A stretch of 64,000 nucleotides of DNA, taken from Aquirufa sp. (lineage in GTDB: Bacteria; Bacteroidota; Bacteroidia; Cytophagales; Spirosomataceae). Location of the stretch: contig NZ_JBILJM010000010.1 of assembly GCF_044377215.1 (NCBI RefSeq), positions 13,276 to 77,275 of the forward strand. The letters are read 5' to 3'. The stretch's first letter is position 1. The number at the start of each line of letters is the position of its first letter. A program made the translations under genes and the position numbers. This document shows, one piece after another, positions 21,207 through 63,750 of the stretch. The notes beneath the pieces were generated by a model that saw only the letters and a program-made list of their open reading frames with translations, was not told where the DNA came from and searched no databases.

Positions 21207-21211
21207 GTACC

Positions 21212-22221: not shown

Positions 22222-22223
22222 CT

Positions 22224-43053: not shown

Positions 43054-43767
43054 CTACGGTTTCAGACGATATAAATACGGAGCTTTGTGAGCGCCTCCGG
43101 TGAATTTCTTTTCAATCCGCAGGAGAATATCTAAACTTAACATCTTACGCTGAAAATTAGTCCGCACAATTTTTTTGTCCAAAATCGTCTCATACACCGC
43201 TTGAATTTCCGACATTGTAAAGGTATCCCCCAATAATTCGAAAGCAATTAATTTTTCATCCAAGGACTGCCTCATTGCTTCTAAAGCCTTATTCACAATC
43301 TTATTATGATCTAAAAATAGATGAGGTAGGGCTGCAATATCAACCCAATCTGCGGCATCTGAAATATCACCAGGGTTAACCACCACCTTGGAATAATCAA
43401 CCAAGGCATAATAACCAATGGTTATGTAACGCTTTGACATCCAAGATAAATCATCATCGGGGGATCCCATCGCCGTAGTAACGCTGCGATGCTCCTCCGC
43501 AGCCCGATCATTCCGCTCTAAATCGCCAAAGGTGTAAAATTGCTCTAAGTATATATCTGTCAATCCTGTACGTTCATACAATACCCGCTCAGCCGCCTGA
43601 TCAACATTTTCTTCTACACCCACAAATCCACCAGCCAAAGACCAGACATGCGTATTGTGAAATTTCAGCAACAATACTTTCAACTGATTTTCATGGAAAC
43701 CAAAAATCACACAGTCAACGGAAATTCCTGGCAACCAAAGTTCTGTTTGTTTAAATCTACTTAACAT
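43054..43767 (-). CDS. NrtR-family regulator (degenerate NUDIX sensor plus winged helix; Bacteroides AraR/XylR-like)
   Basis: SVDCVIFGF, LAGGFV..EE...AAERVLYERTGL, LEQFYTFG and RTNFQRKML...GGAHKAPYLY. Confidence 0.88.
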   Translation of the reverse strand: MLSRFKQTELWLPGISVDCVIFGFHENQLKVLLLKFHNTHVWSLAGGFVGVEENVDQAAERVLYERTGLTDIYLEQFYTFGDLERNDRAAEEHRSVTTAMGSPDDDLSWMSKRYITIGYYALVDYSKVVVNPGDISDAADWVDIAALPHLFLDHNKIVNKALEAMRQSLDEKLIAFELLGDTFTMSEIQAVYETILDKKIVRTNFQRKMLSLDILLRIEKKFTGGAHKAPYLYRLKP

Positions 43768-44018
43768 AAGTTTGAATTAATGAGCAAATTTAATTCGCAA
43801 AAATAACATATCTATCTCAATCAAATTAAACCTGTCCTTACAAAAAATCGGACCTCAATGACCCCTCTGGCAAGAAAAATGGTGAATGCAAATCAATATA
43901 AAATGCACCATTCGCCTGCAACAGGGCATTCATTGCTCTTTGTTTATCAATCAAAGCCGTTCGAGCTGAACTAGGCCTTAGAGCAGCAATAACTAATTTT
44001 GCGCCCGGCACTTGCTTC
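43730..44018. repeat. Left copy of a ~290 bp degenerate direct repeat (GDSL 3' end plus NrtR 5' end)
   Basis: Manual alignment to 63459-63750: about 242 matches in 292 columns with 3 single-base gaps. Confidence 0.92.
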
Positions 44019-44167
44019 CTCAAATAATTAAAAACTTCATACCTATAATCGCCATGGCCACTAACTAAATCCGCTGTTGTATCGAAGGCTAAGGCACCAA
44101 TAGGTTTATTCAATAATGTTCCACTCATTACTAGCGATGCATCTTGGATAAAAGCACTTCTGTTCAT
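43838..44167 (-). pseudogene. Chimeric junction ORF: N-terminus of an exported beta-propeller-like protein fused in frame to a frameshifted GDSL C-terminal remnant
   Basis: Second half KQVPGAKLV...HSPFFLPEGSL aligns with the 63486 protein; first half MNRSAFI...GHGDYRY is unrelated to it. Confidence 0.75.
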
Positions 44168-45531
44168 AACACATTATTTTTTACTAAGTTGTAGTTACCA
44201 CCATTATCGATTTTCACTTTAGGATATTTTCTTTTACAGTTTTCCACCCCAATAGACGTTACCTTACTACTCCAACAATAAATATTTTTCATTGAACCCA
44301 TTTCGCACAATTGCATTAAACCTGCATCATCAATGTTAGTTCCAATGATGTTTAGGTAGTGTAATTTGCTCATTTTTTTAAGGTCATTAACTGCACTATT
44401 AGAGGCACGAGTATTAGCGAGATTAAGTTTTAAAACGTTTTTACATTGAACTATAAACTTAAAAGCCTGATCATTAATTTGAGTATTTGCTAAATTTAAC
44501 CAAGCAATGTTATCTTCAATATCTTGTAAAATAGTGAGCTGCTGATTTGAAAGACCGGGTAATCCTACAGCATTTACATCCAAATAAGGACTTCCTTTTG
44601 AGATCGTGTTTACTTCCCAAAGCTTTTCCTTTAGTTTTATAATAACCAAAGAATCTGCTTTTTTTATCGATTTTAAACCTAAACTTGGTTCGGCGCTCTC
44701 AGTTGATCCAGCCAGAAATGCACGAACAGTGTCATTTTTAAATACCTCACTAATGCTTGTTTTTTCTGATGCACCCGTATTAATCCACCAATTTAAAAGT
44801 GCTATTTCATTGCTCGTGAGCTGCTTCTTTCCTTTAGGGGGCATTCGTTTTTTATCATCCAAATCAAGTAAAGTTCTCTTTACCAATTCACTATGTAAAG
44901 CGTCACCAGGTAATATTGCTGGACCAGTTTTCCCCCCTTTAAGTAAACTAGCAAAAGTTTGCATTTTAAGGTTCCCTTTTGTTTTATTTGGATTGTGGCA
45001 ACTGTAGCATTTTTCACTTAAAATGGGTGTAATGAGTTTTTCGTAAACAGTACCATTTGTGGTACTAGTTACAGGAACAAATGCAACCTGGCTAGTATTT
45101 TTGTCAGTACCCTTTGAGTTATCTATCGATATAAAATCAACCCCGTGTGTAAGGCTACCGCCATAATGACCAGCCAATGCTAAAAACAATAGCATAGAAC
45201 AATAAAGCAAATTTGATATTAGCTTAAATTTTGAAAAGCCCGAGCCTTTAGATTTCCAAGCCCACAAGGTAAGCGCTAAAAAACTAAGAATAATACCTGT
45301 CCACTTATGCTTATTTAGCAAATCTATATCGTACTCGGAAGACAGTGAAAGAAACCAACCTAAAATGGCCGCCGCAACTGACGAGACAGCTCCAATTAAT
45401 AATACTAATTGTATTTGTACTGGCGAGGTTCTTTTGGGAAATAGATATTCTAGTATAGCAGCCAATGCGAGAATACCAATTGGAAGATGAACCATCAAAG
45501 GATGAAAACGCCCAAAAAAATCTAAACTCAT
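44164..45531 (-). CDS. DUF2231-like membrane domain plus planctomycete-type cytochrome c (CYSCH) plus leucine-rich repeats
   Basis: GRFHPLMVHLPIG, four TM helices ending GHYGGSLTHG, CYSCH, RMPP and LxxLNLANT repeats. Confidence 0.8.
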   Translation of the reverse strand: MSLDFFGRFHPLMVHLPIGILALAAILEYLFPKRTSPVQIQLVLLIGAVSSVAAAILGWFLSLSSEYDIDLLNKHKWTGIILSFLALTLWAWKSKGSGFSKFKLISNLLYCSMLLFLALAGHYGGSLTHGVDFISIDNSKGTDKNTSQVAFVPVTSTTNGTVYEKLITPILSEKCYSCHNPNKTKGNLKMQTFASLLKGGKTGPAILPGDALHSELVKRTLLDLDDKKRMPPKGKKQLTSNEIALLNWWINTGASEKTSISEVFKNDTVRAFLAGSTESAEPSLGLKSIKKADSLVIIKLKEKLWEVNTISKGSPYLDVNAVGLPGLSNQQLTILQDIEDNIAWLNLANTQINDQAFKFIVQCKNVLKLNLANTRASNSAVNDLKKMSKLHYLNIIGTNIDDAGLMQLCEMGSMKNIYCWSSKVTSIGVENCKRKYPKVKIDNGGNYNLVKNNVL

Positions 45532-47003
45532 GCTAATATATCTTTAATTACCTGACCATGAACATCTGTCAAACGATACCTCCGACCCTGACTTTTATAT
45601 ACAAATTTTTCGTGGTCAATTCCTAGCATGTGCAGTAATGTAGCCTGAAAATCATGAACGTGTACTTTATCTCGGATCACGTTGTGCGCAAAATCGTCAG
45701 TTTGACCATACACTAGACCCGGTTTTACGCCACCGCCAGCCATCCAAGTTGTATAAGCTCCAGGGTGATGGTCACGACCAAAACCTTCTGGCGTTAGTTT
45801 TCCCTGTGAAAAGCTTGTCCGACCAAATTCTCCTCCCCATATCACCAAGGTGTCATCTAATAATCCCCTTTGCTTTAAATCTTTTACCAAAGCCGCCGAG
45901 GCTTGGTCAGTTTGTTTGGTAGCCTTTCGAATACCTGAAGATATTTTACCGTGATGATCCCAGCCCAAATGATAAAGTTGCACAAATCGTACATCCTTTT
46001 CTATAAGTCTTCTTGCTGTAATGCAATTGTGTGCAAATGTGCCCGGCTTGGTCACGTCGGGGCCATACATGTCTAATATATGCTTGGGCTCTTTTGAAAG
46101 ATCAAGGATATCTGGTACGGCCATTTGCATTTTATAGGCCATTTCAGCTTGGGTAATTTGACTTTCAATTTCAGGATCTTGCCATTTTTCATTTTGGACA
46201 ATATTGAATTGCTTTATAAAATCCAAAGCCCTTCTCCTATCTATTCGTTCTACCCCATCGGGTGTTTTTAAAAAAAGCACAGGGTCTTTAACGGATAAAA
46301 ATTGAACTCCCTGGTGGTAAGACGGCAAAAAACCACTACTCCAAGCTGCATTACTTATAGGCTGGTCGCCACCGCCTTTTGATAACATTACAATAAAGGC
46401 AGGTAAATTTTGATTCATACTACCCAAGCCATAACTTAACCAAGAGCCTATGCAAGGTCTACCGCTCAATTGGTTACCCGTTTGTGTAAAAATCATGGCA
46501 GGTTCATGATTTATTTGATCGGTAACCATACTTTTAATAATACATAATTCATCAACTATTGAAGCTGTGTGAGGAATTAGTTCACTAAGATATGTACTGT
46601 TAGAACCATGCTGTGAAAAATTACAAGCTGGCCTGGCTAGCGGAAATGAATACTGGTTACTTGTCATACCCGATACCCTATTGGAACCCATTACCGAAGG
46701 GGGTATTTCTTTACCATGCATCTTGTAGAGCATGGGTTTATAGTCAAAAAGTTCCATTTGAGATGGACCTCCACTTTGAAACAAATAAATAACTCTTTTG
46801 GCAGTAGGCATAAAATGAGGACTTCCAAGTGGCTGGTTTTCTCGCTCTATTAGTTCAGAAATTTCATTGTTTTTTTGAACAACTTCGGACTTTGAATTGC
46901 ATCCAATTAAACCTTGCAATGCAATTCCACCTAGGCCTATTGCAGAGCCTAATAAAAAATCTCTCCTTTTGGCATTATATTGAATTTTATATAAATCGTC
47001 CAT
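45528..47003 (-). CDS. DUF1501 domain protein, Tat lipoprotein
   Basis: KRRDFL twin-Arg, LIGC lipobox; AKRVIYLFQSGGPSQ, GWDHH, GEFGRT, RDHH and VHDFQATLLH motifs. Confidence 0.9.
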   Translation of the reverse strand: MDDLYKIQYNAKRRDFLLGSAIGLGGIALQGLIGCNSKSEVVQKNNEISELIERENQPLGSPHFMPTAKRVIYLFQSGGPSQMELFDYKPMLYKMHGKEIPPSVMGSNRVSGMTSNQYSFPLARPACNFSQHGSNSTYLSELIPHTASIVDELCIIKSMVTDQINHEPAMIFTQTGNQLSGRPCIGSWLSYGLGSMNQNLPAFIVMLSKGGGDQPISNAAWSSGFLPSYHQGVQFLSVKDPVLFLKTPDGVERIDRRRALDFIKQFNIVQNEKWQDPEIESQITQAEMAYKMQMAVPDILDLSKEPKHILDMYGPDVTKPGTFAHNCITARRLIEKDVRFVQLYHLGWDHHGKISSGIRKATKQTDQASAALVKDLKQRGLLDDTLVIWGGEFGRTSFSQGKLTPEGFGRDHHPGAYTTWMAGGGVKPGLVYGQTDDFAHNVIRDKVHVHDFQATLLHMLGIDHEKFVYKSQGRRYRLTDVHGQVIKDILA

Positions 47004-47012
47004 ATTTTTCGC

Positions 47013-50000
47013 CTATTTTCTTGTAAAAAACTCATCAGTATTCATGAGCGTGGCAGCTACACTTGCAAAAGAAGCAAGAGCTACTTTATCTGATGTTGGC
47101 TTTTTATCATTACCAATAGAAAGATACCTAGCCGCTTTGGTGGGTTGCTTTCCAAAATTCTCCTTTTCTGCTTTATATAATTTATTCAGCAGTATAATTT
47201 CTTTAGTTTGAGGTTTTCGTCCTGTAACCAGCCTAAAACAATAATTCAATTGATTTTCTATAGAATTGCCACCGTTGCGAATCGAATGCCAAGCCAAATT
47301 ACGTGCTGCCTCAATAATTTGTGGATCATTAAGCATTGCAAGCGATTGCATCGGAGAACTAGATACTTGGCGTTTTACAATACAAGTTGATCTGTCTGGC
47401 GCATCAAATATCTGTAGAAACGGCACAACGCTTGTTCTTTTTCTTATCGTATAAATACTTTTACGGTATGTATCATCGCCGGTAGAGGTATTGTAAACAT
47501 ATTTCCAAGACTTATCAGTTAGTTCATCCCATAAGCCAGTAGGTTGGTATGGATATACGCTAGGACCACCAATTTTAGATGTAAGTAATTCACTAATTTT
47601 AAGCGCGTTGTCTCGAATCATTTCAGCAGGATATCTATATCTTGGACTACGTGTTAGTAATACATTAGTAGGATCCATTTTAATTGAATTGCTACTTGCT
47701 TCCGCTGACTGCTGATAGGTAGAACTCATGTAAATATATTTAAAGAGTTCTTTTGTATTCCACTTGTGTTCTCTGTACCAAACCGCTAGATGATCTAAAA
47801 GTTCTGGATGAGAGGGTATATCTCCTTGACTACCAAAATTATCTGAACTTGTAACAATTCCTGTTCCAAACAGCAATTGCCATATTCTATTTACGGCCAC
47901 TCTAGCGGTAAGGGGGTTTTGGTCTAAAAATAGCCAATCAGCTAAGCCCAGTCTATTTTTGGGTAAGTCTTTAGGAAACGGTAATATGGCAGCTGGAGTA
48001 GATGGGTAAACCCGTTCTCCAAAACTATCATATATACCTCGTTTTAAAACATACGTAGGCCTAGGTTTAGGCAAATCACCCATTACCATTACTTCCTTGG
48101 TAGAATCTAGCAGCATACTTAGGTTTTTGCGGGCAAGTAATAAGGGGGGGGCTGGATATTTTTTTAGCTTTTTAACAATAGGAAACGGTAATCTTTTAAA
48201 TAAAAAACTAGCTTCGGCGTGAGACAATTGATCATTAAAAAGTTGAAATTCATCCACTTCGCCGCCTGGCATTGATCGGTCAAGAATACGTACCCCGAAA
48301 GTTATTCCGTTATACAAAGATGTTTTATGAATATTGGGATATGACCTTATATGCTTTACCAAATGATCATATTCTACAATTGGGTCTAATTTTTTGCCGT
48401 CTAAATATAGCGAAACACCTTTAGCTTTACTGCTGCCATCATACGTACCTACCAAATGGTACCATTTATTTGTTTGTAGTTTTTCTTTACTCATTACACT
48501 TATAGCGTCATGAGGAAAAGCATGAGAAATTCTAAAATTTAATTGATTATTTTTTAAAATCAGGTCATAACCTTGATAACCGTACCTTTCCACATCGGTA
48601 TTATGAAAAACTGTAGCTAATGGATAATTATTGGGGACTTTAAGCCAAATAGAAAAGGAAAAAGGTTCGTAACGCTCAAAATAACCTACTTTATACGGAG
48701 GTAATGATACTTGAGTTTCATCATTATACTTCAAAGAAAGCCCACTTACACCTGTAGATGTTTCCACTTTTTTAGCTAAAGCACTTAAAGAGTTATCTAG
48801 CTCGTTAATGTAAATTGTTTTTTTAGGCCCTTTAGTTATTAGCTTATCAAAATTTAACTTCGCTACCAATTTATTACTTAAACCTAAAGCCAATTCTTTT
48901 TGGTTTGGGGACTTTACTTCAAGTTTATTATTATTTTGTTTTTTCTCTAAATTCGCTATATATGATTTAAGCTGGCTTATTTTTTGCTCATTCACTTTTG
49001 TTGGCAACAAGAGCGTAGGGCCGGCAACCATATCCTCATTTCCATAATTTGGACTTCCGTTTTCGAACGTACTATTAAAGAAAGCGTACAAGGAGTAAAA
49101 GTCTTTTTGACTTATTGGATCAAATTTATGATCGTGGCATTTGGCACAGCCTACACTCATAGCCATTAGGCCAGTGCCTAAGGTGCTGGTTCTATCTACC
49201 ACATTTTCAACCCGAAACTCTTCCTCAATAATCCCTGCTTCGGTATTTTGTTTATGATTTCGATTAAATCCAGTAGCAAGTATTTTTTCTTTAGAGGTAT
49301 TTGGCAGCAAATCTCCAGCTAGTTGCCATGTAATAAAATCCTTGAAACTTAGGTTTTTATTATAAGCTTCAATTACCCAGTCACGCCACGGACTCATATC
49401 ATAATGCTTATCATCGAGATACCCAAAGCTATCTGCAAATCTTGCTAAGTCTAACCAATAAATGGCCATTCGCTCGCCATAATCAGGGGAGGCCAAAAAA
49501 CGGTCAACCAGTTTTTCATAAGCGTTTGCGCTTGGGTCTTTCAAAAAAGCATCTACTTCTGCAATACTAGGAGCAAAACCTCTGATGTCAAAACTGAGCC
49601 TTCGAATCAGTGTTTCTTTGTCGGCTCGTGGGCTTGGATTTAATTGGGCGGCTTCAATTTTGGATAAAATAAACTTATCGATGTCGTTTTTTACCCAACT
49701 TGTATTTTTAGTCTTGGGAGCTGTAGTTTTTTTAGGCGCAACATAAGCCCAATGTGGTTTGTATTTCGCACCTTGTTTTATCCATTTAACTAATACTGCT
49801 TTTTCATAAGTCGATAATGTTAAATGCGAGGACGGTTCTGGCATTAGATAATCTGGATCCTCACTTAGAATTCGGTGTACAAAATCACTGCTGGAGATAT
49901 CTCCTGGCACGATTGCCATCATACCAGATTCTGTTTTTTTTGAATATGCTGCTTCAGCTATATCAAGTCTTAAATCTGCTTTTTGCTTTTTAGCATCATT

Positions 50001-50165
50001 CCCATGACAACTAAAACACTTATCAGAAAGGATTTTTTTTACATGGATATTATAATCAACTTCCTCATTAATCCTGTCCATAGCTAAGTTTACCTCCTCA
50101 GGAACTTCAACTTCTTTGCACCCTAAGACAAAAAGCAACAAAGACAAGAATAAAACCTTTTTCAT
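47013..50165 (-). CDS. PSD1/planctomycete cytochrome c protein: PSCyt1 + DUF1549 + LamG-like + DUF1553; lipoprotein
   Basis: VLGC lipobox, CFSCH, CAKCHDHKFDPI, WYHLVGTYDG LamG motif, NPLTARVAVNRIW and PSHPELLD.LA. Confidence 0.9.
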   Translation of the reverse strand: MKKVLFLSLLLFVLGCKEVEVPEEVNLAMDRINEEVDYNIHVKKILSDKCFSCHGNDAKKQKADLRLDIAEAAYSKKTESGMMAIVPGDISSSDFVHRILSEDPDYLMPEPSSHLTLSTYEKAVLVKWIKQGAKYKPHWAYVAPKKTTAPKTKNTSWVKNDIDKFILSKIEAAQLNPSPRADKETLIRRLSFDIRGFAPSIAEVDAFLKDPSANAYEKLVDRFLASPDYGERMAIYWLDLARFADSFGYLDDKHYDMSPWRDWVIEAYNKNLSFKDFITWQLAGDLLPNTSKEKILATGFNRNHKQNTEAGIIEEEFRVENVVDRTSTLGTGLMAMSVGCAKCHDHKFDPISQKDFYSLYAFFNSTFENGSPNYGNEDMVAGPTLLLPTKVNEQKISQLKSYIANLEKKQNNNKLEVKSPNQKELALGLSNKLVAKLNFDKLITKGPKKTIYINELDNSLSALAKKVETSTGVSGLSLKYNDETQVSLPPYKVGYFERYEPFSFSIWLKVPNNYPLATVFHNTDVERYGYQGYDLILKNNQLNFRISHAFPHDAISVMSKEKLQTNKWYHLVGTYDGSSKAKGVSLYLDGKKLDPIVEYDHLVKHIRSYPNIHKTSLYNGITFGVRILDRSMPGGEVDEFQLFNDQLSHAEASFLFKRLPFPIVKKLKKYPAPPLLLARKNLSMLLDSTKEVMVMGDLPKPRPTYVLKRGIYDSFGERVYPSTPAAILPFPKDLPKNRLGLADWLFLDQNPLTARVAVNRIWQLLFGTGIVTSSDNFGSQGDIPSHPELLDHLAVWYREHKWNTKELFKYIYMSSTYQQSAEASSNSIKMDPTNVLLTRSPRYRYPAEMIRDNALKISELLTSKIGGPSVYPYQPTGLWDELTDKSWKYVYNTSTGDDTYRKSIYTIRKRTSVVPFLQIFDAPDRSTCIVKRQVSSSPMQSLAMLNDPQIIEAARNLAWHSIRNGGNSIENQLNYCFRLVTGRKPQTKEIILLNKLYKAEKENFGKQPTKAARYLSIGNDKKPTSDKVALASFASVAATLMNTDEFFTRK

Positions 50166-50335
50166 GTACTAAATATAAGACACATTAATATTTTAATTTG
50201 TTGATTTTAATGTTTTTTTAAATTAATTAATTTTCTAGTCAATACATTCTTTCGCAAAATGTACAAATCGTAAAATTTCATTGAATCTTTAAACGCTAGC
50301 TATTTTTTATACTTAATTTTTGAAAATAATCTTAA

Positions 50336-50370
50336 AGAAAAAATAGCCCCATCCATAAGACGGGGCTATT
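50336..50370 (-). terminator. Intrinsic terminator after susD
   Basis: AATAGCCCC/GGGGCTATT stem, with T-run on the minus strand. Confidence 0.7.
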
Positions 50371-50392
50371 AGTTAACCCTAAACTAATTTAA

Positions 50393-52228
50393 TTATTCTA
50401 CTATTTTATCTAATGCAGGCTTATTTGATTCACTACCTGCGTATCCTAAATTTTGATTGATCTGTCCCAAGCTATTTGCCAAAATTGCAGCTCTAGGAAT
50501 CGGCCATAAAACATGGTAAGGACTCATCGTATATGCATCATTACGAATATTTCTAACCTTATTATAGAAATTATTTTTCTCAATTACTCTATCATAAAAG
50601 AAATTAGCGGTTGAAAAATTTTGTAATGAATACGTTTTGCCCCTATAACTTCTACCTGACTTCGCCATTTGATAGGCAATACGAGTTAATTCAGTTTTAC
50701 GTGGCTCTTCATAATACAATTCTCTTCCTCTCTCATCTAAAATGGTGCCAATATCAATTACTTTATTTGCAGGATATGGCTTACAGTTTGCCCTAGTTCT
50801 AACCGCATTAAGATCAGCAATAGCCAAAGCATTATTGCCCTTAAACCAATGAGCTTCCGCTCTTAAAAGGTACGTTTCTGCTAAGCGAAAAACATACCAG
50901 TCTGAGTTTCCACCTTGAAATGGAATTCGGATTTGGTCTTCAACATAAAGTTTGTAATGTGGCCAATTAAACCAATTTCTGATGGTATCGCCATTGCTTA
51001 TCAATAATTTGCCAGCGGCGTCTCTTAGTTGAAGAGGCTTTCCATAAAAAGGCGATATCCCTTTTATAGCTGTATTATTATACACCAAATCTTCCATTCT
51101 CATCCAGTTTCCAGATTTTGTATCATGGCGATGATCATTTTCGTCATCCCAAACGTCATATTGTGTATAATTCGTTGCACGGCATCGACCAATTCCACGA
51201 CCATATTTTGTGCTTAAATCAAATTCCACTTGTCCAGGTACCAAACCAGACCTGCCATCAGGAGTCAAAATAGCACTGTTTGAGAAAAATGGTACAGCTT
51301 GACGCATACTTGTAGTTCCAGAGGCAGAAGCACTCGCTAATCCAAAACGATCTGTTACCGAAAACAAAACTTCGGTATTTGCAGCAGCAAATTTATTTGC
51401 TGGACGATGTAGGTCCCAAGTAACATTTTTTGTGCTATTACCTGCATCTATTCCAAATCTCCCCGTTACTAATCTATAAGTACCACTGTTAATTACTTGG
51501 TCAGCACTAGCTATAGCTTCATCATAAAGACCTAAAGCCAAGTTGACCTTTGTAAGCAAATGGCCAATTGAAGCTTTATTAACATCTCCTTTGTCACCAA
51601 TAAATGGTACATTTTTAAATGCAAAATCGAGATCGGCTTTAATTTTAGTTAAAATAGCCTCTCTTTTTACAGTTTGAAAATCAAGTTTAGGACTTGAAAT
51701 TTCTTTAAAAGAAGTAGGCACATCCCCAAATTGATTAACCAATCGATAATAATGATAAGCACGGTAAAAATAGGCCTTTCCAAGAAGCTGGTTTTTAACG
51801 TCGTCTTTTATCGAAGTAACGGTAGGAATTTTATCAATTATTGTATTCGCCAATCGAATACCTAACCAATGTCTTTCCCAATACCAACCAATTCGATTAA
51901 AATCAGCACTGTTAAGGTTTGCGTCTGGTGTAATCAATACATTCAAATCTACAGCTGGACCAAATTTATCGGTGGTACCCTCAACTGCCATTTCTGAAAA
52001 CAGCAACTCTGTAATGATAGGGTGACCATCACCATACCATTCATCTTTTAGATTTGCTGAACAGGAAGCCAACGCTGATTTAAAACCAGCTTCACTTGTA
52101 AAAGTATTTTCTGGAGTAAATAAGGATAGAGGCTGCGGAGTAAGCCAATTGTCCGTACAACTTGTAAACACTGCCAGCACGATAGCAGCGACTACGGTTA
52201 TTTTTCTAATTTTAAATATATTTTTCAT
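50393..52228 (-). CDS. RagB/SusD family outer-membrane glycan-binding lipoprotein
   Basis: FTSC lipobox, GKAYFYRAYHYY..V..FGDVP, FRLAETYLLRAEA, ILDERGRELYYE and WPIP...QNLGY. Confidence 0.93.
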   Translation of the reverse strand: MKNIFKIRKITVVAAIVLAVFTSCTDNWLTPQPLSLFTPENTFTSEAGFKSALASCSANLKDEWYGDGHPIITELLFSEMAVEGTTDKFGPAVDLNVLITPDANLNSADFNRIGWYWERHWLGIRLANTIIDKIPTVTSIKDDVKNQLLGKAYFYRAYHYYRLVNQFGDVPTSFKEISSPKLDFQTVKREAILTKIKADLDFAFKNVPFIGDKGDVNKASIGHLLTKVNLALGLYDEAIASADQVINSGTYRLVTGRFGIDAGNSTKNVTWDLHRPANKFAAANTEVLFSVTDRFGLASASASGTTSMRQAVPFFSNSAILTPDGRSGLVPGQVEFDLSTKYGRGIGRCRATNYTQYDVWDDENDHRHDTKSGNWMRMEDLVYNNTAIKGISPFYGKPLQLRDAAGKLLISNGDTIRNWFNWPHYKLYVEDQIRIPFQGGNSDWYVFRLAETYLLRAEAHWFKGNNALAIADLNAVRTRANCKPYPANKVIDIGTILDERGRELYYEEPRKTELTRIAYQMAKSGRSYRGKTYSLQNFSTANFFYDRVIEKNNFYNKVRNIRNDAYTMSPYHVLWPIPRAAILANSLGQINQNLGYAGSESNKPALDKIVE

Positions 52229-52239
52229 AAAAAATCAAT

Positions 52240-55380: not shown

Positions 55381-55545
55381 AGTTTAATAATTGTTTAAGT
55401 GATTGAGTATGTATAGTTACACACTCATAATTGTTAAGAAATTGATAAAAATTGAATTACATACATGATTAGAAATTGTTAAAAAGCTAAAAAATGAGTT
55501 ATACTATTATTTAATCTGAATTTTCCTTGTTTCAACGTACAATGA

Positions 55546-56925
55546 CTATTTATTTTTGAATTGATTCGTACCATATGGCACTCTTTGAGATCTTCCCAAC
55601 ATAGTATTTGCTGTTTCGTTATTAGTAAATCTTTCAGTCTTGGGATCCCATAATAATTTACCGGGTAGTTTCATTGCAATATGACTAATCAAGCAAATTG
55701 AGCAAACACGGTGTGCAACTTCTACTGGAGATAATACAGGAGTCTTATTTAGAATTCCTTCTAGCCAGTTTAAATGGTGTTCCTCACTTACCTGAAGTTT
55801 TACTTCGCTATCTTTTATTTGAGAAGTCAATATTTTGGGGTTACTAGCATCTAAAGCTTTAGCACTTTTAGCTGCTGCAATAGGATCAGATGCGGATGCG
55901 ACATAACTACCTCTAGAAACAAAAATCCAACCCTCCGAGCCTTCAAAACGAATTCCATTAGGATAGCCTCCACTTGTATACATCGATATACCGTTTGCAT
56001 AATCAGATTTTACCATAAAATCACCATGAACATTCCATAAGCCAGATTTTGGAAACTCAGCTATTGCTTCTACAGATATTGGACCAGTGTGTTCGGTATC
56101 CATGCCCCATGCTGCAATATCATAGTGATGTTGTCCCCAACCGGTAATCATACCAGACCCAAATTGCTCAAGTCTTAACCATCCCGGTCGACCATAACCT
56201 ACTTGAGGATGAACCCCTATTTCAGTGTAGGGCACAAAAGGCGTAGAGCCTAACCATGCATCATAATTCAAATTTTTGGGAATGGGCATTTCGGGTGCAG
56301 ATGGACCTGATGGATCACCTGGCAGTCCTATTTTTATGGTGTGTAGCTTTCCAATTCTACCATTTCGGACTAACTCTGCAGCTATCCTAAATTGCGATGT
56401 AGAACGCTGTTGGGTTCCTACCTGAAAAACCACCCCTTTTTTGTTTACTATTTGACAAAGCTGTCTGCCTTCCGATATGGTCAAAGAAGTAGGTTTTTGA
56501 AGATATATGTGCTTACCTGCTAATGCGGCTTCCATGGCAGGCTGAGCATGCCAATGGTCTGGCGTACTAATCATGACCGCATCAATATCTTTGTTTAGGA
56601 GCATTTCACGGTAATCGTCGTACATCTTAGTATCCATGTATTTATTATTGCCTGTCTTTTGCCCATAATATCCATCAATGAGGCTTTTGGCATCCTCTAC
56701 TCTATTTCTATCAATATCACAAGCTGCTATGATTCTCGCTGAATCATGTTTAAATGTTTCCGCTAAGTCATGTTCACGTGCTATTCTACCACAGCCGATT
56801 TGACCAATATTTATTTTATTCGAAGGCGCGTTTTTCCCAAATACGGAAGAGGGTACAATAGTTGGTAAACCAATTGTCGCTACTGCTCCAGTGAGAGTTT
56901 GTTCAATAAATTTCCTACGTTTCAT
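55546..56925 (-). CDS. Gfo/Idh/MocA NAD-dependent oxidoreductase, Tat-exported
   Basis: MKRRKF leader, IGQIGCG, ISTPDHWH, YLQKP, QVGTQQRS and GWGQHHYD. Confidence 0.9.
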   Translation of the reverse strand: MKRRKFIEQTLTGAVATIGLPTIVPSSVFGKNAPSNKINIGQIGCGRIAREHDLAETFKHDSARIIAACDIDRNRVEDAKSLIDGYYGQKTGNNKYMDTKMYDDYREMLLNKDIDAVMISTPDHWHAQPAMEAALAGKHIYLQKPTSLTISEGRQLCQIVNKKGVVFQVGTQQRSTSQFRIAAELVRNGRIGKLHTIKIGLPGDPSGPSAPEMPIPKNLNYDAWLGSTPFVPYTEIGVHPQVGYGRPGWLRLEQFGSGMITGWGQHHYDIAAWGMDTEHTGPISVEAIAEFPKSGLWNVHGDFMVKSDYANGISMYTSGGYPNGIRFEGSEGWIFVSRGSYVASASDPIAAAKSAKALDASNPKILTSQIKDSEVKLQVSEEHHLNWLEGILNKTPVLSPVEVAHRVCSICLISHIAMKLPGKLLWDPKTERFTNNETANTMLGRSQRVPYGTNQFKNK

Positions 56926-59546
56926 ATTTTGTTTTGTTTAACAATGAATGTTTTACTAGCCCTACCAAACTTATTGAAAGCTCTAACTTTTATTGGACCA
57001 TTAACTTTTACAGGGTAGGTATATTCTTTAGAATTTACGTCTGGCTCCGAACCATCTTCCGTATAGCGGATAGTAAAACCAGGAAAAGCTACATTTGCTT
57101 TCAGTAAACCATCCTCTATAACGGCTCCGGGTTGAGCTATTCGGTAATTATAGCCATTAAATAAAAAATCTAAACGGGGAAATTCGCGCTGTCCAATTTG
57201 ATTTGAAATATCTGCCCAACCTGCCCATATCGAATTAACACGTTTAGATATTGTACTTTCACTCTCCCAAGCAGGCGCATTAGACCATGATTTCTCAGCA
57301 AAAGCAAACAATTTAGGTGCAAGATAATATTCCAGCATTTTCGAGCCTTTAATTGTTTCAGACCACAATTGGGCCTGCATACCCACAATATTTTTTTCAG
57401 CTTCCCTCTTTAAATACTGACGTGCCATATTAGCATCAATTTTTTGAGATTTACGTCCAAAAATCTCCTCTTTTTCTGTCAGCCTGCTGTATTTATCAAA
57501 ATTTATAGATTTAAAAACATCAAACGGCGTCATTACATACGGGTCTATAGCATCCTGATATCCTGCCCAAACCAGTCCTGGTTCAGTAGGATCAGAATTG
57601 TAGGAAAGATCAAAATACAGATTGGTTGCATTACACAGCACCACCTTGTAACCAGCATTTGCAATTCGATAACCTAGGTCAATATTTTTTCCTGTATTAT
57701 CCCAAACTAATGGCAGTACCTTTTTGTCCTTAAATTTGGGGTTAACTTGAATGTTGTTTTGACTATCCTTATTCAATACGATTTCTTCCCAGCCAGCCAC
57801 TTCCAAATTGTATTTTTCAAAAATTGCTACCGCTTTTTCAAGAAAATATCCTTGCAACTGGCGGGCATCTTTTATTTCAGGTAACGTTTTCATCAACTCC
57901 TTACAAAGGGGTGATTTCGCCCAAGCTCCGTTGGGCACTTCGTCTCCTCCCGTATTGAAAGTGGTCAATTTTAAGCCTGCTTCTTGATACATGGCTACTA
58001 TATCTTTCACTACTGTTTCGTAGAAGTGATACACAGAGGGCAGTGCTACACAAACAATATTGTCCTTGTACATCTGTGCTGACAAGTAAACCGATTTATC
58101 ATTTGGATCAATCAATCGAAATTCCTTTGCTTTTTCAGTCTCCCCTTTTGCCATAAAATAATCGTATCGAGCTTCCATGGCTTTAATCGCAGCACGGGCA
58201 TGGCCAGGCATTGAAATTTCAGGAATAACTTGGATATGCCTTTGGTCAGCATATTTAATGATCTCTTTAAATTCCTCTCTTGTGTAAAACCCTTTTCCAT
58301 AATTGTTTTCAGAATCGGGATGAGGGCCAGAGCCATATGATGGAGTAAGCCAGTTTTTAGAATCAACGGTATGCCCACGTTTACTACCTATCTGTGTCAA
58401 TTCCGGAAGACCCTTTATCTCTAAACGCCAACCTTCGTCTTCAGAAAGGTGGAGATTGAGTTTGTTAATCTTATACATTGCCAAAAGGTCAATAAGCCTT
58501 AAAACATCCTCTTTTTTGGCAAAATTTCGTGATACATCAAGCAAAAAACTTCGAAAACTAAATCTAGGAGCATCCGAAATTTCTACACTTTCAACTTTGA
58601 TTTGAGCACGATTTAATGCTGGTATAAGAGCTGAAAGACTTTGAATACCATAAAAAACACCCGCCGCATCATTTCCCGTTATTGCTACTCCTTTCCCTTC
58701 ACCTACGGTCAGAGAATAGGCTTCTGCCGAAACGCCATTGATCTTTAATGGGGCTGTTTTGATAGTAATAGAATTTGCTTCCGCTCCATTTCCTTCTTTT
58801 ATCTTTAATTTTTTACCCAAATATTTTTCCATCAACGACGCCAAATATTCAGCCTCTTTTTTAAGCGTTTTACTGTAATATATCGTAGAGTTTTTATCCA
58901 AAGTAACACCGCCTTTTCCTGATTTTATCGAATAAGGACTCGGTATGATTTTGCCAATCTTGTCAGTTGGCAGTAAAGGAATATTTTGGTTTATAACGTA
59001 TTGATTAGCCGCAGTAGGTATAGTAGCAACAAATTCAGAATCTGGGAAGATATTAGTATAATCTGTAATTGGGGAAATATTTAAATCTTTGGCAATGATT
59101 CTTGAATCATCATAAACGATATAAGCACCTTGTGGAGCATATTTTTCATTAAATAGAATACCATCGGCTTCGTATTCAAAAGAAATCGAATCACCTTGAC
59201 GCAGTGTAAAACTACTATCAGGTACATAGCGGTATAAATCGCCATTCAGATGTTCAATTTTCCCATTAGCTAAGTCTGCAGGCTGCTTGGGTTTCAAGAA
59301 ACTTTGGTTGAAATACAAAGACCATTTTCCTGTTTTAATTGTTTCCGGCCCATTATTAATAAAAATGAAGGCTGCTTTGTTAGCTCCCGATTCATTCGCT
59401 GGATTTTTGATTAATCTCCATTTTAAAGTAAGTTTTTTAAACTTATCTGAATTATCCACCTTTGCCCCAAGAGAACCAAAATTTAGGCAAATGAGATAAA
59501 TAAGCGATACAATCAAAGCTAAATAGTTGCAATTCTTCCTTAACAT
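56922..59546 (-). CDS. GH20 beta-N-acetylhexosaminidase (chitobiase-like architecture)
   Basis: DAPRFSFRSFLLDVSRNF, HLSEDEGWR, GHARAA, GGDEVP, QAQLWSET and IRYTEDGSEP. Confidence 0.92.
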   Translation of the reverse strand: MLRKNCNYLALIVSLIYLICLNFGSLGAKVDNSDKFKKLTLKWRLIKNPANESGANKAAFIFINNGPETIKTGKWSLYFNQSFLKPKQPADLANGKIEHLNGDLYRYVPDSSFTLRQGDSISFEYEADGILFNEKYAPQGAYIVYDDSRIIAKDLNISPITDYTNIFPDSEFVATIPTAANQYVINQNIPLLPTDKIGKIIPSPYSIKSGKGGVTLDKNSTIYYSKTLKKEAEYLASLMEKYLGKKLKIKEGNGAEANSITIKTAPLKINGVSAEAYSLTVGEGKGVAITGNDAAGVFYGIQSLSALIPALNRAQIKVESVEISDAPRFSFRSFLLDVSRNFAKKEDVLRLIDLLAMYKINKLNLHLSEDEGWRLEIKGLPELTQIGSKRGHTVDSKNWLTPSYGSGPHPDSENNYGKGFYTREEFKEIIKYADQRHIQVIPEISMPGHARAAIKAMEARYDYFMAKGETEKAKEFRLIDPNDKSVYLSAQMYKDNIVCVALPSVYHFYETVVKDIVAMYQEAGLKLTTFNTGGDEVPNGAWAKSPLCKELMKTLPEIKDARQLQGYFLEKAVAIFEKYNLEVAGWEEIVLNKDSQNNIQVNPKFKDKKVLPLVWDNTGKNIDLGYRIANAGYKVVLCNATNLYFDLSYNSDPTEPGLVWAGYQDAIDPYVMTPFDVFKSINFDKYSRLTEKEEIFGRKSQKIDANMARQYLKREAEKNIVGMQAQLWSETIKGSKMLEYYLAPKLFAFAEKSWSNAPAWESESTISKRVNSIWAGWADISNQIGQREFPRLDFLFNGYNYRIAQPGAVIEDGLLKANVAFPGFTIRYTEDGSEPDVNSKEYTYPVKVNGPIKVRAFNKFGRASKTFIVKQNKI

Positions 59547-59580
59547 ATTATTTTTTCAAAAATTTTAACTTGGTCCTGTT

Positions 59581-60471
59581 TTACTTTGATTTATAAAGTT
59601 CAAATTGTTCGGCAATTTTAGCCGACGCCACATCCCCAGCATGCACTAATACACGGTATTTTAACTGAATCGTTTGCCCTTTTTTTAAGGTTGTTTCTTT
59701 ATCGTTTGCTGGCCAATACATAGGTGTTGGTGAAAAGAAACCATAATCACGGGTGAACCATGGTGAAGGATACCATTCGTTAGAAGGGTGCTGCATGATA
59801 GCCATGCCTTCAATTTTATCGCCCCGTTTGCCATAAAAATCTATCCAAGGTGATCTTTTACCAAATGTTCCTTTTTCTCCTTTATCGCCATTGGCATTAA
59901 CCATAGTGCCACCATTTGTTACAGCAAGGTCAGCATCCATACGACCGCTAAACAGAGAATGGTTCGTTTTATCTATTGTTACATCCATGAGCATTTCCAT
60001 AGTAATATCGAAATCAATTTGAAAAAGATCATTGGAAGGTGCCGTAATCGTAATCTTACGAAAATCTTTTATGGGTGAGTTGGCATTTGGTCTACGCCAA
60101 ATATTTTCAGTTTCAATGACAACTTTATCATTTCCTGATTCAATAATATCTGCTCTCAAAGAAATTATTTGTCCTCTTTCGAGTCCTTCTTGCCAGTAGT
60201 TGCCACCATTTACCTTATCACACCCAAAAAACAAGGAACTGTGATGTGGATAATTTCCATTTCTCATGGATGTAACACTGCTATTGGAAGGCCCATTTAC
60301 TGGAAAAAAGAATGGGTATTTTTCGTCTTCAGAAAAAATATAACTCGTAAAAAGGTTTTTGTTGATAAGAACATCAATTTTAGAGTGATATTTTTCAGCC
60401 ACTATTTTTGTCTGTCCGAAAGAGGATATACATGTTCCCCAAAATAATAGGACAATAAATTTCGTTTTCAT
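59581..60471 (-). CDS. DUF6807 ('PmoA-family') secreted protein
   Basis: YPFFFPV, YPHHSSLFF...VNGGNYW, HPSN...W.TRDYG and LKYRVLVHAG. Confidence 0.78.
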   Translation of the reverse strand: MKTKFIVLLFWGTCISSFGQTKIVAEKYHSKIDVLINKNLFTSYIFSEDEKYPFFFPVNGPSNSSVTSMRNGNYPHHSSLFFGCDKVNGGNYWQEGLERGQIISLRADIIESGNDKVVIETENIWRRPNANSPIKDFRKITITAPSNDLFQIDFDITMEMLMDVTIDKTNHSLFSGRMDADLAVTNGGTMVNANGDKGEKGTFGKRSPWIDFYGKRGDKIEGMAIMQHPSNEWYPSPWFTRDYGFFSPTPMYWPANDKETTLKKGQTIQLKYRVLVHAGDVASAKIAEQFELYKSK

Positions 60472-60473
60472 GA

Positions 60474-61826
60474 TTAATAACTAGTTTTAGCCAATTCTAA
60501 GGCTTTTGTGGTGATAAAATATTTCAAAAGCATATTAGGAACTTCCCATTCTGGCAATTGATTTTTTGCTTGAAATTGCAAGAAACGGTCCATTACTTCA
60601 CCAAAGTGTGCTTCATGTCCAGTGCGATAAATAGATGGAATTTCAACTAGCCATTCCGTATTTTTTTTGATAAGCTCAATTCCCGGGTATTTACGTTTTA
60701 GATTCTCAAAACCTTGAATCAATTCTTTTTCAGAAATGTTTACTGGTTGTACATATACTTGAGGGATGAATTTTTCAGCCTTCCCTTGTCTTATTTCTAC
60801 ATTTGCTTTGGTTCCTCTCATAACAGAATAATGAGTATCACCCCCTTCTGATGTACTATAATTCCATATTGCACGGAGTTTAGTATGGGTTCCTCTCAAA
60901 CTATAATTGATTTCACCATTGGCAAAAACATTGATTGTTGTATCATTTTTTAGATCTTTTTTCAAGAAATCAGGAAATTGTTTCTTACCTGTAATAAGTG
61001 AAAATTGACTCAAAGCAATTGGTGTTGGCCATCTTTTGGCAGTAATATTTTTGATGTCTTTACTACCTAAAGAAACATTCGAAAAACCCGACCATTGAGC
61101 CAAATCAACAAGGTGAACCATTACATCGGCAATACCTTCGCCTTGTTGTGAAACGTCCATAAACCATGTTGGACGAATAAGCGGACTTCCAGAAACATAT
61201 TTATAAAAATAATGGACACTCTCTATCGAAATGGCTGGATTTTCGGCTGTCCCCTTTTCTAATTTTCCAAAAATGGCTGGTATTTCGGATAGTTCTTTTT
61301 GTAAGACTGTGGTAATTTCTGAGCGCTCAGTCATTATATCATAAAGAAGAACATTGTTTTTTTTGGCTTCGACAAATGCTTTTTTTAAAAGTTCATACCC
61401 TTTCGAATCAATACACATAGGTTTGTCTGCCAATATATTCAAGCCCGACTCAGCCGCTTTTAAAATATACTCCGTTTTCTTTAAATTGTTTCCCGCGAGA
61501 ATTAGCACACTATTTTTGGCAGTTGCTCCCTTATTTTCGACAAGCATTTTTTTAAAAAAATCATTTCCTTCATAGACTTTCTCCTGCCATTGAGTAGGAT
61601 TTTTTGCGCGAATATTATAGCTATTGATACGTTTTAAATGGTCCTGTAAATCTTGTCCCATTGGTGCATATACATTTACTTTTGAATTAACATTTTCATA
61701 CATTTTATTTTGAACCAAAGCTGCATGAAAGTGACCGGGGTCAAGGGTTATAAATTTTATTGGCTTTTGAGCAAAAACAACAGAATTTGCCATTACAGTT
61801 AAAATATATATTGATTTATTAAGCAT
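60474..61826 (-). CDS. Gfo/Idh/MocA-related protein with 'putative oxidoreductase C-terminal domain'
   Basis: LDPGHFHAALVQ, LADKPM, LLYDIMTER, QQGEG..DV..HLVD and GHEAHF. Confidence 0.8.
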   Translation of the reverse strand: MLNKSIYILTVMANSVVFAQKPIKFITLDPGHFHAALVQNKMYENVNSKVNVYAPMGQDLQDHLKRINSYNIRAKNPTQWQEKVYEGNDFFKKMLVENKGATAKNSVLILAGNNLKKTEYILKAAESGLNILADKPMCIDSKGYELLKKAFVEAKKNNVLLYDIMTERSEITTVLQKELSEIPAIFGKLEKGTAENPAISIESVHYFYKYVSGSPLIRPTWFMDVSQQGEGIADVMVHLVDLAQWSGFSNVSLGSKDIKNITAKRWPTPIALSQFSLITGKKQFPDFLKKDLKNDTTINVFANGEINYSLRGTHTKLRAIWNYSTSEGGDTHYSVMRGTKANVEIRQGKAEKFIPQVYVQPVNISEKELIQGFENLKRKYPGIELIKKNTEWLVEIPSIYRTGHEAHFGEVMDRFLQFQAKNQLPEWEVPNMLLKYFITTKALELAKTSY

Positions 61827-62020
61827 TGTTTATTTCTTGATACATCTAAATAACTCTTAAATAAAATCACGGAAAAGTTCAATAAATTTCTTAAAAAAGA
61901 AATTTAAAGAGATTCGCAATTCCTTGTGATAAATTTAAAAATTCAGTTTGTAATCGAACATAACACACATTTATAAAACTCTAATAAGAATTCCCATAAT
62001 TTTTTTTAGAAATTTTTAAT

Positions 62021-62062
62021 AAAACTACCGGAAACGTTTTCGAAAACCTTTCCGGTAGTTTT
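62021..62062. promoter_or_regulatory. 42 bp near-perfect palindrome; putative double LacI-family operator
   Basis: AAAACTACCGGAAA-C-GTTTTCGAAAAC-C-TTTCCGGTAGTTTT in the divergent gap before the LacI gene. Confidence 0.7.
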
Positions 62063-62165
62063 CACTTAATATTATTTTATAAAATATAATTTTAACTTAC
62101 TTTTATACATAAATATCAAATCAAAACTGTGGGAAATTCTCATTATTAGAATAATTCAATACTAG

Positions 62166-63320
62166 ATGATTGCTTGTATCAAATGCAATAAGGAAGAGGA
62201 CATCGTTCGATCAGGATTTGTAAGGGGCCGACAAAGACTATATTGCAAAACTTGTGCAATATATTTTTCTATAACACCCTCGAACCAATTAGTTAATAAA
62301 AAGCCACATCAAACAACCATTGTTGATGTGGCAAAAGTATTGGGAGTTTCACCTTCGACTGTTTCCAGGGCATTAAATAATAGCTCAGAAATCAATGAAT
62401 ATACTCGGCAAGAAATTATTAAAGTTGCCAACGAACTAGACTATCGTCCAAATTTGCTAGCACAAAGTCTAAATCGAGGTGAATCACATACCATAGGTGT
62501 AATTATTCCTGATATTCAAAGACCCTTTTTTGCTGGAGTAGTGGCAGGAATTCAGAAAATTGCAACGGCAGCTGGTTACAGAGTAATGATATGTCAATCC
62601 AATGAATCCCATCATACCGAAACACTAAATGTGCAAGCATTAGTTGCAAGTAGGGTAGATGGACTTTTAATAAGTCATACAAAAGAAACAAAGAGTTTCG
62701 AACATGTAAAATTACAACTCAAAAATGGCTTACCAATTGTTCATTTTGATAGGGTATGCGGTGAACTTGATACGGCAAAAGTAATTCAAGAAGATTTTTT
62801 AGGTAGTTTTGCTTTAGTTGAACATTTGATTCAGCAAGGTTGCACCAGAATTGCCGCATGCGCCGGACCTAAAGATTTATTGATTAGCGAAAACCGATTA
62901 AATGGCTATAAAGCAGCATTAGCAAAATATGGGATTCCCATCGATGAGGAACTTATTTTTCATAGTAATTTCAGAGAAGCAGATTCATTGATTGCACTTT
63001 CTAAATGGTTAGATTTATCTCAAAAACCCGATGGAATTTTTACATTACATTATGGAAATGCCATCGAAATGATGGTAGAATTAAAACAAAAAGGCATTAA
63101 AATGCCTAATGAAATTGCGTTGGTGGCATTTGGAGATGACTTGTTGGCTTCATTAATAGAACCATCACTTACCGTTTATAATCAATCTGCATATACAATT
63201 GGACAGGAAGCAGCAAGTATTTTAATTGATAACATAATCAATAAGGACACATTTATACCATATACTAAAACTATCAAAGGCAAATTAATAATCAGACAAT
63301 CCTCACAAAAAACAGGCTAA
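62166..63320 (+). CDS. LacI family regulator with N-terminal C4 zinc ribbon
   Basis: CIKC-x19-CKTC; TIVDVAKVLGVSPSTVSRAL HTH; YRPNLLA hinge; periplasmic-binding-protein-like core. Confidence 0.92.
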   Translation: MIACIKCNKEEDIVRSGFVRGRQRLYCKTCAIYFSITPSNQLVNKKPHQTTIVDVAKVLGVSPSTVSRALNNSSEINEYTRQEIIKVANELDYRPNLLAQSLNRGESHTIGVIIPDIQRPFFAGVVAGIQKIATAAGYRVMICQSNESHHTETLNVQALVASRVDGLLISHTKETKSFEHVKLQLKNGLPIVHFDRVCGELDTAKVIQEDFLGSFALVEHLIQQGCTRIAACAGPKDLLISENRLNGYKAALAKYGIPIDEELIFHSNFREADSLIALSKWLDLSQKPDGIFTLHYGNAIEMMVELKQKGIKMPNEIALVAFGDDLLASLIEPSLTVYNQSAYTIGQEAASILIDNIINKDTFIPYTKTIKGKLIIRQSSQKTG

Positions 63321-63457
63321 GTTTACAGAACATTGGAAGATTTACCCTAGAATGCGCCTTTGAGCACAACGAATACCATTAACTAAGTTGAATAGAGAAT
63401 CTTATGAGAGTCAAAATAATTCCCATTTTGGTAGATCTTTACCAAGTGCAATTAACA

Positions 63458-63496
63458 AGGCAACCTAAGTTATGTTTGTTTAAATCTACTTAACAT
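63458..63496 (-). pseudogene. 13-codon stub of the NrtR gene with a nonsense codon
   Basis: ATGTTAAGTAGATTTAAACAAACATAACTTAGGTTGCCT = MLSRFKQT*LRLP versus intact MLSRFKQTELWLP at 43767. Confidence 0.85.
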
Positions 63497-63750
63497 ATTT
63501 TAGAACAAATGCGCGAATTTGATTCGCAAAAATTACATATCCTTTCTCATTTAAATGAAGCCTATCCGCCACAAAAATATCGGTCATCAATGACCCATCA
63601 GGCAAGAAAAATGGCGAATGCATATCAATATAATATGAACCTTTTGACTGAATCAAGGCATTCAATGCTCTTTGTTTGTCACCCAAAGCCGTTCGAGCTA
63701 AACTCGGCCTTGCCGCTACAAAAACTAATTTTGCGCCTGGCACTTGTTTC
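63459..63750. repeat. Right copy of the ~290 bp degenerate direct repeat
   Basis: Aligns to 43730-44018 at about 83% identity. Confidence 0.92.

Follow-up and report, generated by a model that had tools for sequence, protein, structure and literature searches.

In the 64-kb stretch of an Aquirufa sp. genome analysed here (contig NZ_JBILJM010000010.1; hereafter the window, and its lineage W), the gene for a GDSL/SGNH hydrolase and the regulator gene nrtR are separated by 19.4 kb of low-GC DNA carrying part of a polysaccharide utilization locus (PUL). Very probably, this fragment was inserted in one event in the W lineage, with arbitrary ends, in the absence of a recombinase, an insertion sequence (IS) or a tRNA target, and together with a duplication of 294 bp of the recipient's own GDSL-nrtR junction, whose redundant parts subsequently decayed in a neutral manner.

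The element is delimited by the only direct repeat of at least 40 nt within the window. Local alignment of positions 43730-44018 with 63459-63750 yields 242 identities in 292 columns (82.9%) and three one-base gaps, exactly as the first-pass annotation of this DNA had described. A gap-free extension of the repeat reaches 44023 and 63755, and the global alignment then contains 245 identities in 297 columns. In a BLAST comparison within the window, this pair is matched with E=3.6e-81 and the next-best pair with E>=2.8, while inverted repeats of at least 40 nt are absent from the 64 kb. Every gene in the region is located on the minus strand, with the exception of the LacI gene. Next to the left copy (43730-44023), the native nrtR gene (43054-43767, minus strand), assigned by Pfam and synteny, is intact, contains the Nudix domain and the NrtR/AraR-type winged helix (PF21906, 68.8 bits; PF00293, 36.4 bits; PF19368, 32.7 bits) and is 99% identical to nrtR of the empty-site sister lineage L003 (L-numbers denote retrieved comparison loci). 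The remainder of the left copy is the GDSL' remnant, the 3' 267 nt of the hydrolase gene (43757-44023, minus strand), a pseudogene with three frame-breaking indels and a premature stop. The right copy (63459-63755, 294-297 bp) consists of the GDSL 3' end and the first 38 nt of nrtR. Here, the native GDSL/SGNH hydrolase gene (63486-64000, minus strand; PF13472/PF00657) is intact, with its catalytic block FIGSSS upstream and in frame, and the full-length protein of 213 aa, whose gene extends ~127 bp beyond the window end, is called on the identical contigs L083-L092. The accompanying nrtR' stub (63459-63496, minus strand; 38 nt) encodes MLSRFKQT, eight codons that are followed by a stop due to a G>T change, and differs from the native nrtR 5' end at two positions. 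The initial description of a broken GDSL with an intact nrtR on the left and an intact GDSL with a broken nrtR on the right is correct; what it interpreted as reciprocal decay consists mostly of truncation at the time of the event. The GDSL' remnant is fused in frame to a truncated cargo gene, forming an open reading frame (ORF; 43838-44167) for which a Pfam scan returned no match. Given that the longest identical run between the two copies measures 25 nt, loss of the island by recombination between them is now probably rare.

Comparison with related genomes provides the polarity of the event. A scan for NrtR among species-representative genomes identified the host as an Aquirufa-like freshwater member of the Spirosomataceae. 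GDSL is found directly upstream of nrtR in all 46 Aquirufa-clade loci that were retrieved (L003-L048), deep branches included; the two genes overlap in the five closest relatives and are ~20-60 nt apart in the other loci. Downstream of nrtR, the clade loci contain YebC and a DUF5916 protein, as does the window, and none of the 46 loci has a cargo gene within 10 kb of GDSL-nrtR. The closest relative is the metagenome-assembled genome MiE-22jul19-14 (L003), which is 94.9% identical over 9.9 kb of the right flank and 92.3% identical over 11 kb of the left flank, and both flanks are colinear with the clade genomes. As all 46 loci are empty and the flanks are colinear, the contiguous GDSL-nrtR junction is the ancestral state and the 19.4 kb are a derived insertion. 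This agrees with the ancestral operon postulated in the first-pass annotation, which had named an empty site in sister strains as the observation to look for and would have been refuted by the lack of a GDSL-nrtR overlap in every relative. Making up most of the native GDSL gene, a patch of ~500 bp (63605-64000, continuing to about 64100 on L083) is only 77-81% identical to L003, in between flanks that are 93-100% identical, and two GDSL allele classes exist in the clade (W/L005/L006 versus L003/L004/L016). This distribution suggests that GDSL alleles are exchanged by homologous recombination, independently of the island.

Both junctions were recovered repeatedly from independent material. The left junction is present with 100% identity on an independent 4.5-kb contig from another sample, the right junction and right flank are the same in at least 10 JGI/ENA contigs, and the right-junction sequence is represented by 100% of its sampled words in at least 20 lake/freshwater metagenome runs from 2016 to 2024. 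These observations exclude an assembly artefact, which had been considered improbable from the start on the basis of the repeat divergence. In addition, 87 blocks of the assembly collection contain an index entry for this exact LacI protein. When metagenome contigs were scanned with exact 56-mers, no W-type empty or excised allele was detected, the single match being an L003-type contig, and contigs from four metagenome runs contained no genuine circle or excision joint. An apparent 63689->43987 joint in metagenome contigs proved to be a product of where the query stretch had been cut. In one lake metagenome (run X1), the left remnant occurs in a version that has another pair of one-base indels, at 43841 and 43861, and the cytochrome gene is represented by a divergent strain (25 differences in 1035 nt), consistent with a remnant that continues to vary neutrally.

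The sequence of the left copy is informative about its source. Its best match anywhere is the right copy (83%), with relatives at 67-77% where detectable, and most of the 46 clade loci gave no detectable match to it. Polarisation of the 50 substitutions between the copies with five outgroups assigns 36 to the left branch and 7 to the right branch, leaving 7 ambiguous. Left-branch changes are distributed over the first, second and third codon positions as 15/12/9, compared with 7/6/24 and 6/8/26 for functional orthologues, and, of 181 columns without variation among six functional genes, 26 carry a mutation in the left copy. The divergence between the copies is nearly uniform, with 18.5% in the species-variable half and 18.9% in the species-conserved half, and the left copy has 13 of the 26 rare derived states seen in the right copy. 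The missing third-position bias, the lack of extra divergence in the variable half and the shared right-copy states indicate that the left copy originated in the lineage itself and not in another species. Thus, the left copy is a duplicated allele of the recipient lineage itself, which has since evolved as a neutrally decaying pseudogene. Its portion from the nrtR start codon onward is identical to L003 because it is part of the functional gene. The idea that the incoming junction copy was derived from a related species, advanced in the first-pass annotation, is contradicted by the tests of codon position, invariant columns, uniform divergence and shared states.

The decayed copy also allows the event to be placed in time. 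Decay on the left copy's own branch amounts to 13.5% (36/267), and four-fold divergence between the W cargo and the related locus L099 is 25.2%, about twice this value. For flanking genes, W and L003 differ at 14.8% of four-fold sites in the right flank and at 24.7% in the left flank. At the level of an order-of-magnitude agreement, a single event at about the time when W split from L003 would cover the transfer, the duplication and the empty site of L003.

The composition of the island supports a foreign origin and offers no enzyme for its mobility. The interval between the copies (44024-63458; 19,435 bp) has a GC content of 0.362, versus 0.428 in the left and 0.427 in the right flank, and donor-like loci match the low value, so that the proposed check of the GC profile is in line with foreign cargo. 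All island ORFs of at least 100 aa were compared with Pfam and ten cargo proteins additionally with NCBIfam; no recombinase, transposase or relaxase was found among them, nor in the rest of the 64 kb. No tRNA and no Rfam family was detected when the whole window was scanned. Vector backbone, replication and mobilisation genes are likewise missing, every cargo ORF being a gene of the locus. Together with the scan for inverted repeats, these whole-window searches confirm the earlier statement that tRNA target, integrase and IS are lacking. The features of an integrase-dependent island or an integrative conjugative element (ICE) are not observed, since there is no recombinase at the ends, no tRNA, and the repeat is a 294-bp target copy spanning two coding regions; the features of an IS or composite transposon are not observed either, in the absence of a transposase and of inverted repeats of at least 40 nt. 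The rest of the window consists of core housekeeping genes, among them accBC, genes for ribosomal proteins, tsf and a mur/fts cluster.

Loci related to the cargo define its ends. The same locus, with identical gene sizes, is found at different chromosomal sites in other organisms. In a locus with a 93% identical LacI (P0122), LacI is followed by ABM, hydrolase and HipBA genes, in one with an 89% identical LacI (L099/L100) by small ORFs and an OEP gene, and LacI identity grades down to ~79% in Emticicia species. W and L099 share 90.9% DNA identity over 11.2 kb, from LacI to SusC, and their homology stops at ~63370, about 50 bp (63321-63370) past the LacI stop codon. W and L104 are 82.3% identical over 11.4 kb and have the same order SusC-SusD-PSD-DUF1501-cytochrome; here, the homology reaches 44034, where it breaks off within the fourth distal-module gene. 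The GC content of L099 and L104 is 0.35-0.36, including the own flank of L099, and matches that of the island. By these affinities, the donor is placed among low-GC, Spirosomataceae-like organisms.

A fourth gene follows the cytochrome gene in every other locus, encoding 350 aa in L093, L096 and L097 and, up to the contig end, at least 146 aa in L104. Since this gene is cut to ~44 codons in W (44034-44167, minus strand; a 5' part with a TAT-like signal, recognised by N-terminal homology to L093/L096/L097/L104), the left cargo end is an illegitimate joint inside a gene. The 10 nt between this gene and the GDSL' remnant (44024-44033; TTTTAATTAT on the gene strand) may be filler or else decayed GDSL sequence that follows an ATGAA microhomology; the ATGAA motif is common to the fourth cargo gene and GDSL and represents a candidate microhomology. 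At the right joint, 88 bp (63371-63458) separate the recognisable cargo end from the nrtR' stub and are probably donor flank or filler. Cargo-type loci elsewhere have unrelated flanks at both ends, devoid of GDSL and nrtR, and thus do not provide an anchor for homology-facilitated illegitimate recombination (HFIR).

The following sequence of events would account for this arrangement. In the ancestor, GDSL and nrtR overlapped by 11 nt. Very probably, one event in the W lineage inserted the 19.4-kb PUL piece, with ends inside its last gene and ~50-140 bp past LacI, and at the same time duplicated 294 bp of the recipient's GDSL 3' and nrtR 5' regions, so that an intact GDSL lay to one side of the insert and an intact nrtR to the other. 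What had become redundant (267 nt of GDSL' and 38 nt of nrtR') then decayed neutrally. For the joining step, it is proposed that the cargo entered as a linear fragment and was connected by two illegitimate, at most microhomology-guided joints that lay 294 bp apart in overlapping order, either on different sister chromatids while the chromosome was being replicated or at a staggered break with subsequent fill-in. With overlapping joints, target duplication is automatic and no homology is needed in the cargo, and this route is favoured because it needs only the two joints that are observed and fits a linear fragment with a cut gene and no vector. Whatever the joining mechanism, selection explains why so rare an outcome was kept: a simple insertion into the overlapping gene pair would destroy one gene and, owing to the overlap, both can survive only if the insertion duplicates the junction. 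As a whole, with the joining step included, this is the best explanation at hand, held tentatively and with somewhat less than even confidence.

Several points weigh against it. The duplication may have been generated by overlapping illegitimate joints or by a Campbell-type crossover, as no mark in the sequence separates the two. In Escherichia coli conjugation, flanking duplications of 109-950 bp result from single crossovers of circles, and HFIR usually leads to deletions (PMC3240628). Double illegitimate recombination has been reported to be very rare, according to work cited in PMC8116780. The 88-bp and 10-nt junction stretches have no match in any retrieved locus or in the window. A direct donor was not found, the best candidates being L099 (91%, LacI to SusC) and L104 (82%, SusC to the fourth gene). 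Finally, the dating is based on 267 nt and uncorrected distances.

The strongest competitor is insertion-duplication of the Campbell type, in which a non-replicating circle containing the cargo and a 294-bp junction copy of own-lineage origin would have been integrated by one RecA-type crossover. The footprint is an exact match, as the insert is flanked by a direct duplication of a contiguous target that is single-copy in relatives, and this is the best-documented route to such a footprint: 56 of 60 E. coli conjugation integrants were single crossovers with duplications in the range given above, far commoner than HFIR (PMC3240628). The resemblance includes the size of the duplication (a few hundred bp in both cases) and the independence from a site-specific recombinase, and the own-lineage origin of the left copy is compatible with this route. 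Unlike the E. coli case, however, no vector backbone or circle is detectable here and the host fragment would have to be joined beforehand to pure locus DNA. The route thus needs three events, namely two illegitimate joints that build a circle from locus DNA and a 294-bp host fragment, followed by the crossover, yet the island lacks replication, mobilisation and vector genes, one cargo gene is cut by a joint, both cargo ends are non-homologous joints, and the contigs of four metagenome runs yielded no circle or excision junction. Since both copies belong to the same lineage, they carry no chimerism signal that would mark a crossover. Overall, a Campbell-type origin is regarded as rather unlikely, while remaining the first alternative to overlapping joints.

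Considerably less probable is a history in two steps. Here, a simple insertion at the point equivalent to 63755/44023 would have broken GDSL, which was later restored by an HFIR patch consisting of the GDSL 3' end and 38 nt of nrtR from an empty-site relative of the same allele class, with the GDSL 5' region as anchor, an illegitimate joint at 63458, and selection for the repaired gene. Each step is of a documented type (for HFIR: PMC3240628, PMC5361080), GDSL allele exchange does occur in the clade, and the end of the right copy 38 nt into nrtR, next to 88 unmatched bp, would be explained. Against this, neither allele class nor identity profile changes at 63755, remnant decay and cargo divergence fit a single date, and an intermediate without functional GDSL would have to persist, making this scenario less parsimonious.

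Very little probability is assigned to the full version of the first-pass annotation, in which the circle carried a junction from a related species and most of the 17% divergence is interspecies. Although the copies are only 83% identical and the cargo itself is foreign, the left branch shows no third-position excess and has mutations in 26 invariant columns, the variable half lacks extra divergence, right-copy-specific derived states are shared, and the nearest relative of the left copy is the right copy at 83%, clade species reaching at most 77%. Least credible of all is that the locus is ancestral here and was lost from relatives by repeat recombination, or that the window is an assembly chimera: deletion between 294-bp direct repeats would indeed leave a clean empty site, but 46 of 46 species are empty, deep branches included, the island GC lies 6.5 points under the flanks and equals that of donor-like genomes, the cargo ends inside a gene, and independent assemblies from many samples and years contain the junctions.

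Insertion by overlapping illegitimate joints shares features with several known systems. Both HFIR and double illegitimate recombination are known from natural transformation and conjugation (de Vries and Wackernagel, 2002; Prudhomme et al., 2002; Hulter and Wackernagel, 2008; as cited in PMC3240628, PMC5361080 and PMC8116780), and like the present case they involve arbitrary-ended foreign DNA, no mobile-element enzyme, non-homologous joints and a truncated gene at the joint. HFIR joints typically feature 3-10-bp microhomology and deletions (PMC3240628). In contrast to the W island, HFIR needs a homologous anchor and deletes recipient DNA of insert-like size (PMC3240628), whereas here no anchor is visible and DNA was duplicated; moreover, experimental inserts measure ~1 kb compared with ~19 kb. 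In Streptococcus pneumoniae, merodiploids arise by transformation-induced tandem duplication through interchromatid integration (PMC3784515). By analogy, one fragment joined to two sister chromatids would duplicate the DNA between the joints, with the difference that the S. pneumoniae joints are homologous and the duplications 100-900 kb long, as opposed to non-homologous joints and 294 bp here. Orphan 3' gene remnants that result from cassette displacement have been described for effector-immunity arrays of the Vibrio cholerae type VI secretion system and for Rhs loci (PMC5361080). In both situations, a decaying 3' remnant beside a new cassette records insertion history; in those systems, the remnant stems from an older gene that was displaced, and a conserved 5' region anchors the incoming module, whereas nothing was displaced here and GDSL' duplicates a gene of which an intact version persists on the other side.

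The gain of a PUL by horizontal transfer is in itself ordinary biology. In Bacteroidota, PULs are carried on ICEs, and most acquired islands can be attributed to an integrase, a transposase or exchange via homologous flanks. Native PUL exchange has been noted as well (PMC13188876). The W island resembles PUL-bearing ICEs in the horizontal gain of a SusC/SusD locus with regulator and enzymes, but differs from them in lacking integrase, relaxase, conjugation genes, att sites and a tRNA target and in being a fragment with one gene cut. It represents a well-documented natural case of a 19-kb metabolic locus becoming fixed at an arbitrary position without integrase, transposase or homologous-flank exchange, and for Bacteroidota it offers a clean natural instance of an illegitimate (or Campbell-like) insertion accompanied by a long target duplication. 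The 294-bp target duplication preserved both interrupted genes, and the decayed duplicate serves as a built-in clock, in that 13.5% neutral decay agrees with the divergence between cargo and donor lineage. A decayed gene-junction duplication around low-GC cargo is also a searchable signature that can be used to gauge illegitimate acquisitions in the carbohydrate niches of Bacteroidota. It is more doubtful that the case reflects a general, recombinase- and homology-independent mode of PUL gain in free-living Bacteroidota, in which linear DNA joined at overlapping points "self-heals" its site by target duplication. If this were true, decayed gene-junction duplications would be a signature to search for across genomes, and insertion would be tolerated in compact overlapping operons.

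The gene content of the island, assigned by domain searches, identifies the cargo as a PUL of the SusC/SusD type, judged by its adjacent susC and susD genes, a GH20 enzyme and a dedicated, divergent LacI regulator. The LacI-family regulator (62166-63320, plus strand) has an N-terminal Zn-ribbon. This 48-aa CxxC...CxxC segment (62166-62310) resembles the Zn domains of IS1/IS1595/IS256 transposases with 21.5 bits, below the cut-off of 27, and looks like a feature of the LacI subfamily, as Emticicia homologues are similar in length. Between the LacI gene and the divergently transcribed operon, a palindrome of 21+21 nt (62021-62062; 95% complementary, no spacer) is a candidate LacI operator. The minus-strand genes begin with an Oxidoreduct_C-domain oxidoreductase (60474-61826), a DUF6807 protein (59581-60471) and a GH20 beta-N-acetylhexosaminidase with carbohydrate-binding and C-terminal domains (56922-59546). 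They continue with a GFO/IDH/MocA oxidoreductase (55546-56925), which is glycoside-3-dehydrogenase-like and scores below the family cut-off, the SusC/RagA TonB-dependent transporter (52240-55380; TIGR04056, 739 bits against a cut-off of 368) and the SusD-family lipoprotein (50393-52228; SusD_RagB and SusD-like_3). The distal module comprises a PSCyt1/PSCyt2(DUF1549)/Laminin_G_3/PSD1(DUF1553) protein (47013-50165), a DUF1501 protein (45528-47003) and a protein with a DUF2231 membrane domain and a PSCyt1 cytochrome domain (44164-45531), in addition to the truncated fourth gene.

The locus is modular in other organisms. L104 retains only a 214-bp Oxidoreduct_C fragment (L104:104-309) directly upstream of SusC and is without DUF6807, GH20 and GFO genes, and GH20 is truncated or split in the locus with the 93% identical LacI (P0122) and in L091 (L091:4887-5333). 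Many Bacteroidota contexts, both with and without SusC/SusD, contain the conserved four-gene module (W 44164-50165; L093-L098, L104) composed of PSCyt1/DUF1549/DUF1553, DUF1501, DUF2231-cytochrome and a 350-aa protein that has a TAT-like signal and matches NHL faintly. Because identity to W varies by gene between loci, the history of this module is mosaic.

Expression data are available from lake metatranscriptomes, whose contigs cover parts of the DUF1501 and cytochrome genes in fragmentary form; the distal cargo module is probably transcribed. No metatranscriptome contig was found over the remnant region (43836-44147). A contig of RNA run X25 (43616-43768) extends from the nrtR 5' end into a functional-type GDSL 3' end, which identifies an empty-site relative as its source and shows co-transcription of GDSL and nrtR in that relative. 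An nrtR promoter or operator embedded in the GDSL 3' end, an idea raised by DNA invariance among the five closest relatives, was discarded, as third-position entropy is unexceptional clade-wide. Scans for sigma-70 promoters and terminators did not exceed shuffled sequences, with a tool that does not cover Bacteroidota promoters. Elsewhere in the window, the native chromosome encodes a gluconate-2-dehydrogenase subunit-3-like protein and a GMC oxidoreductase, an SMP-30/gluconolactonase and a 3-keto-disaccharide hydrolase (18907-22958), and these oxidative sugar genes could work together with the acquired oxidoreductases.

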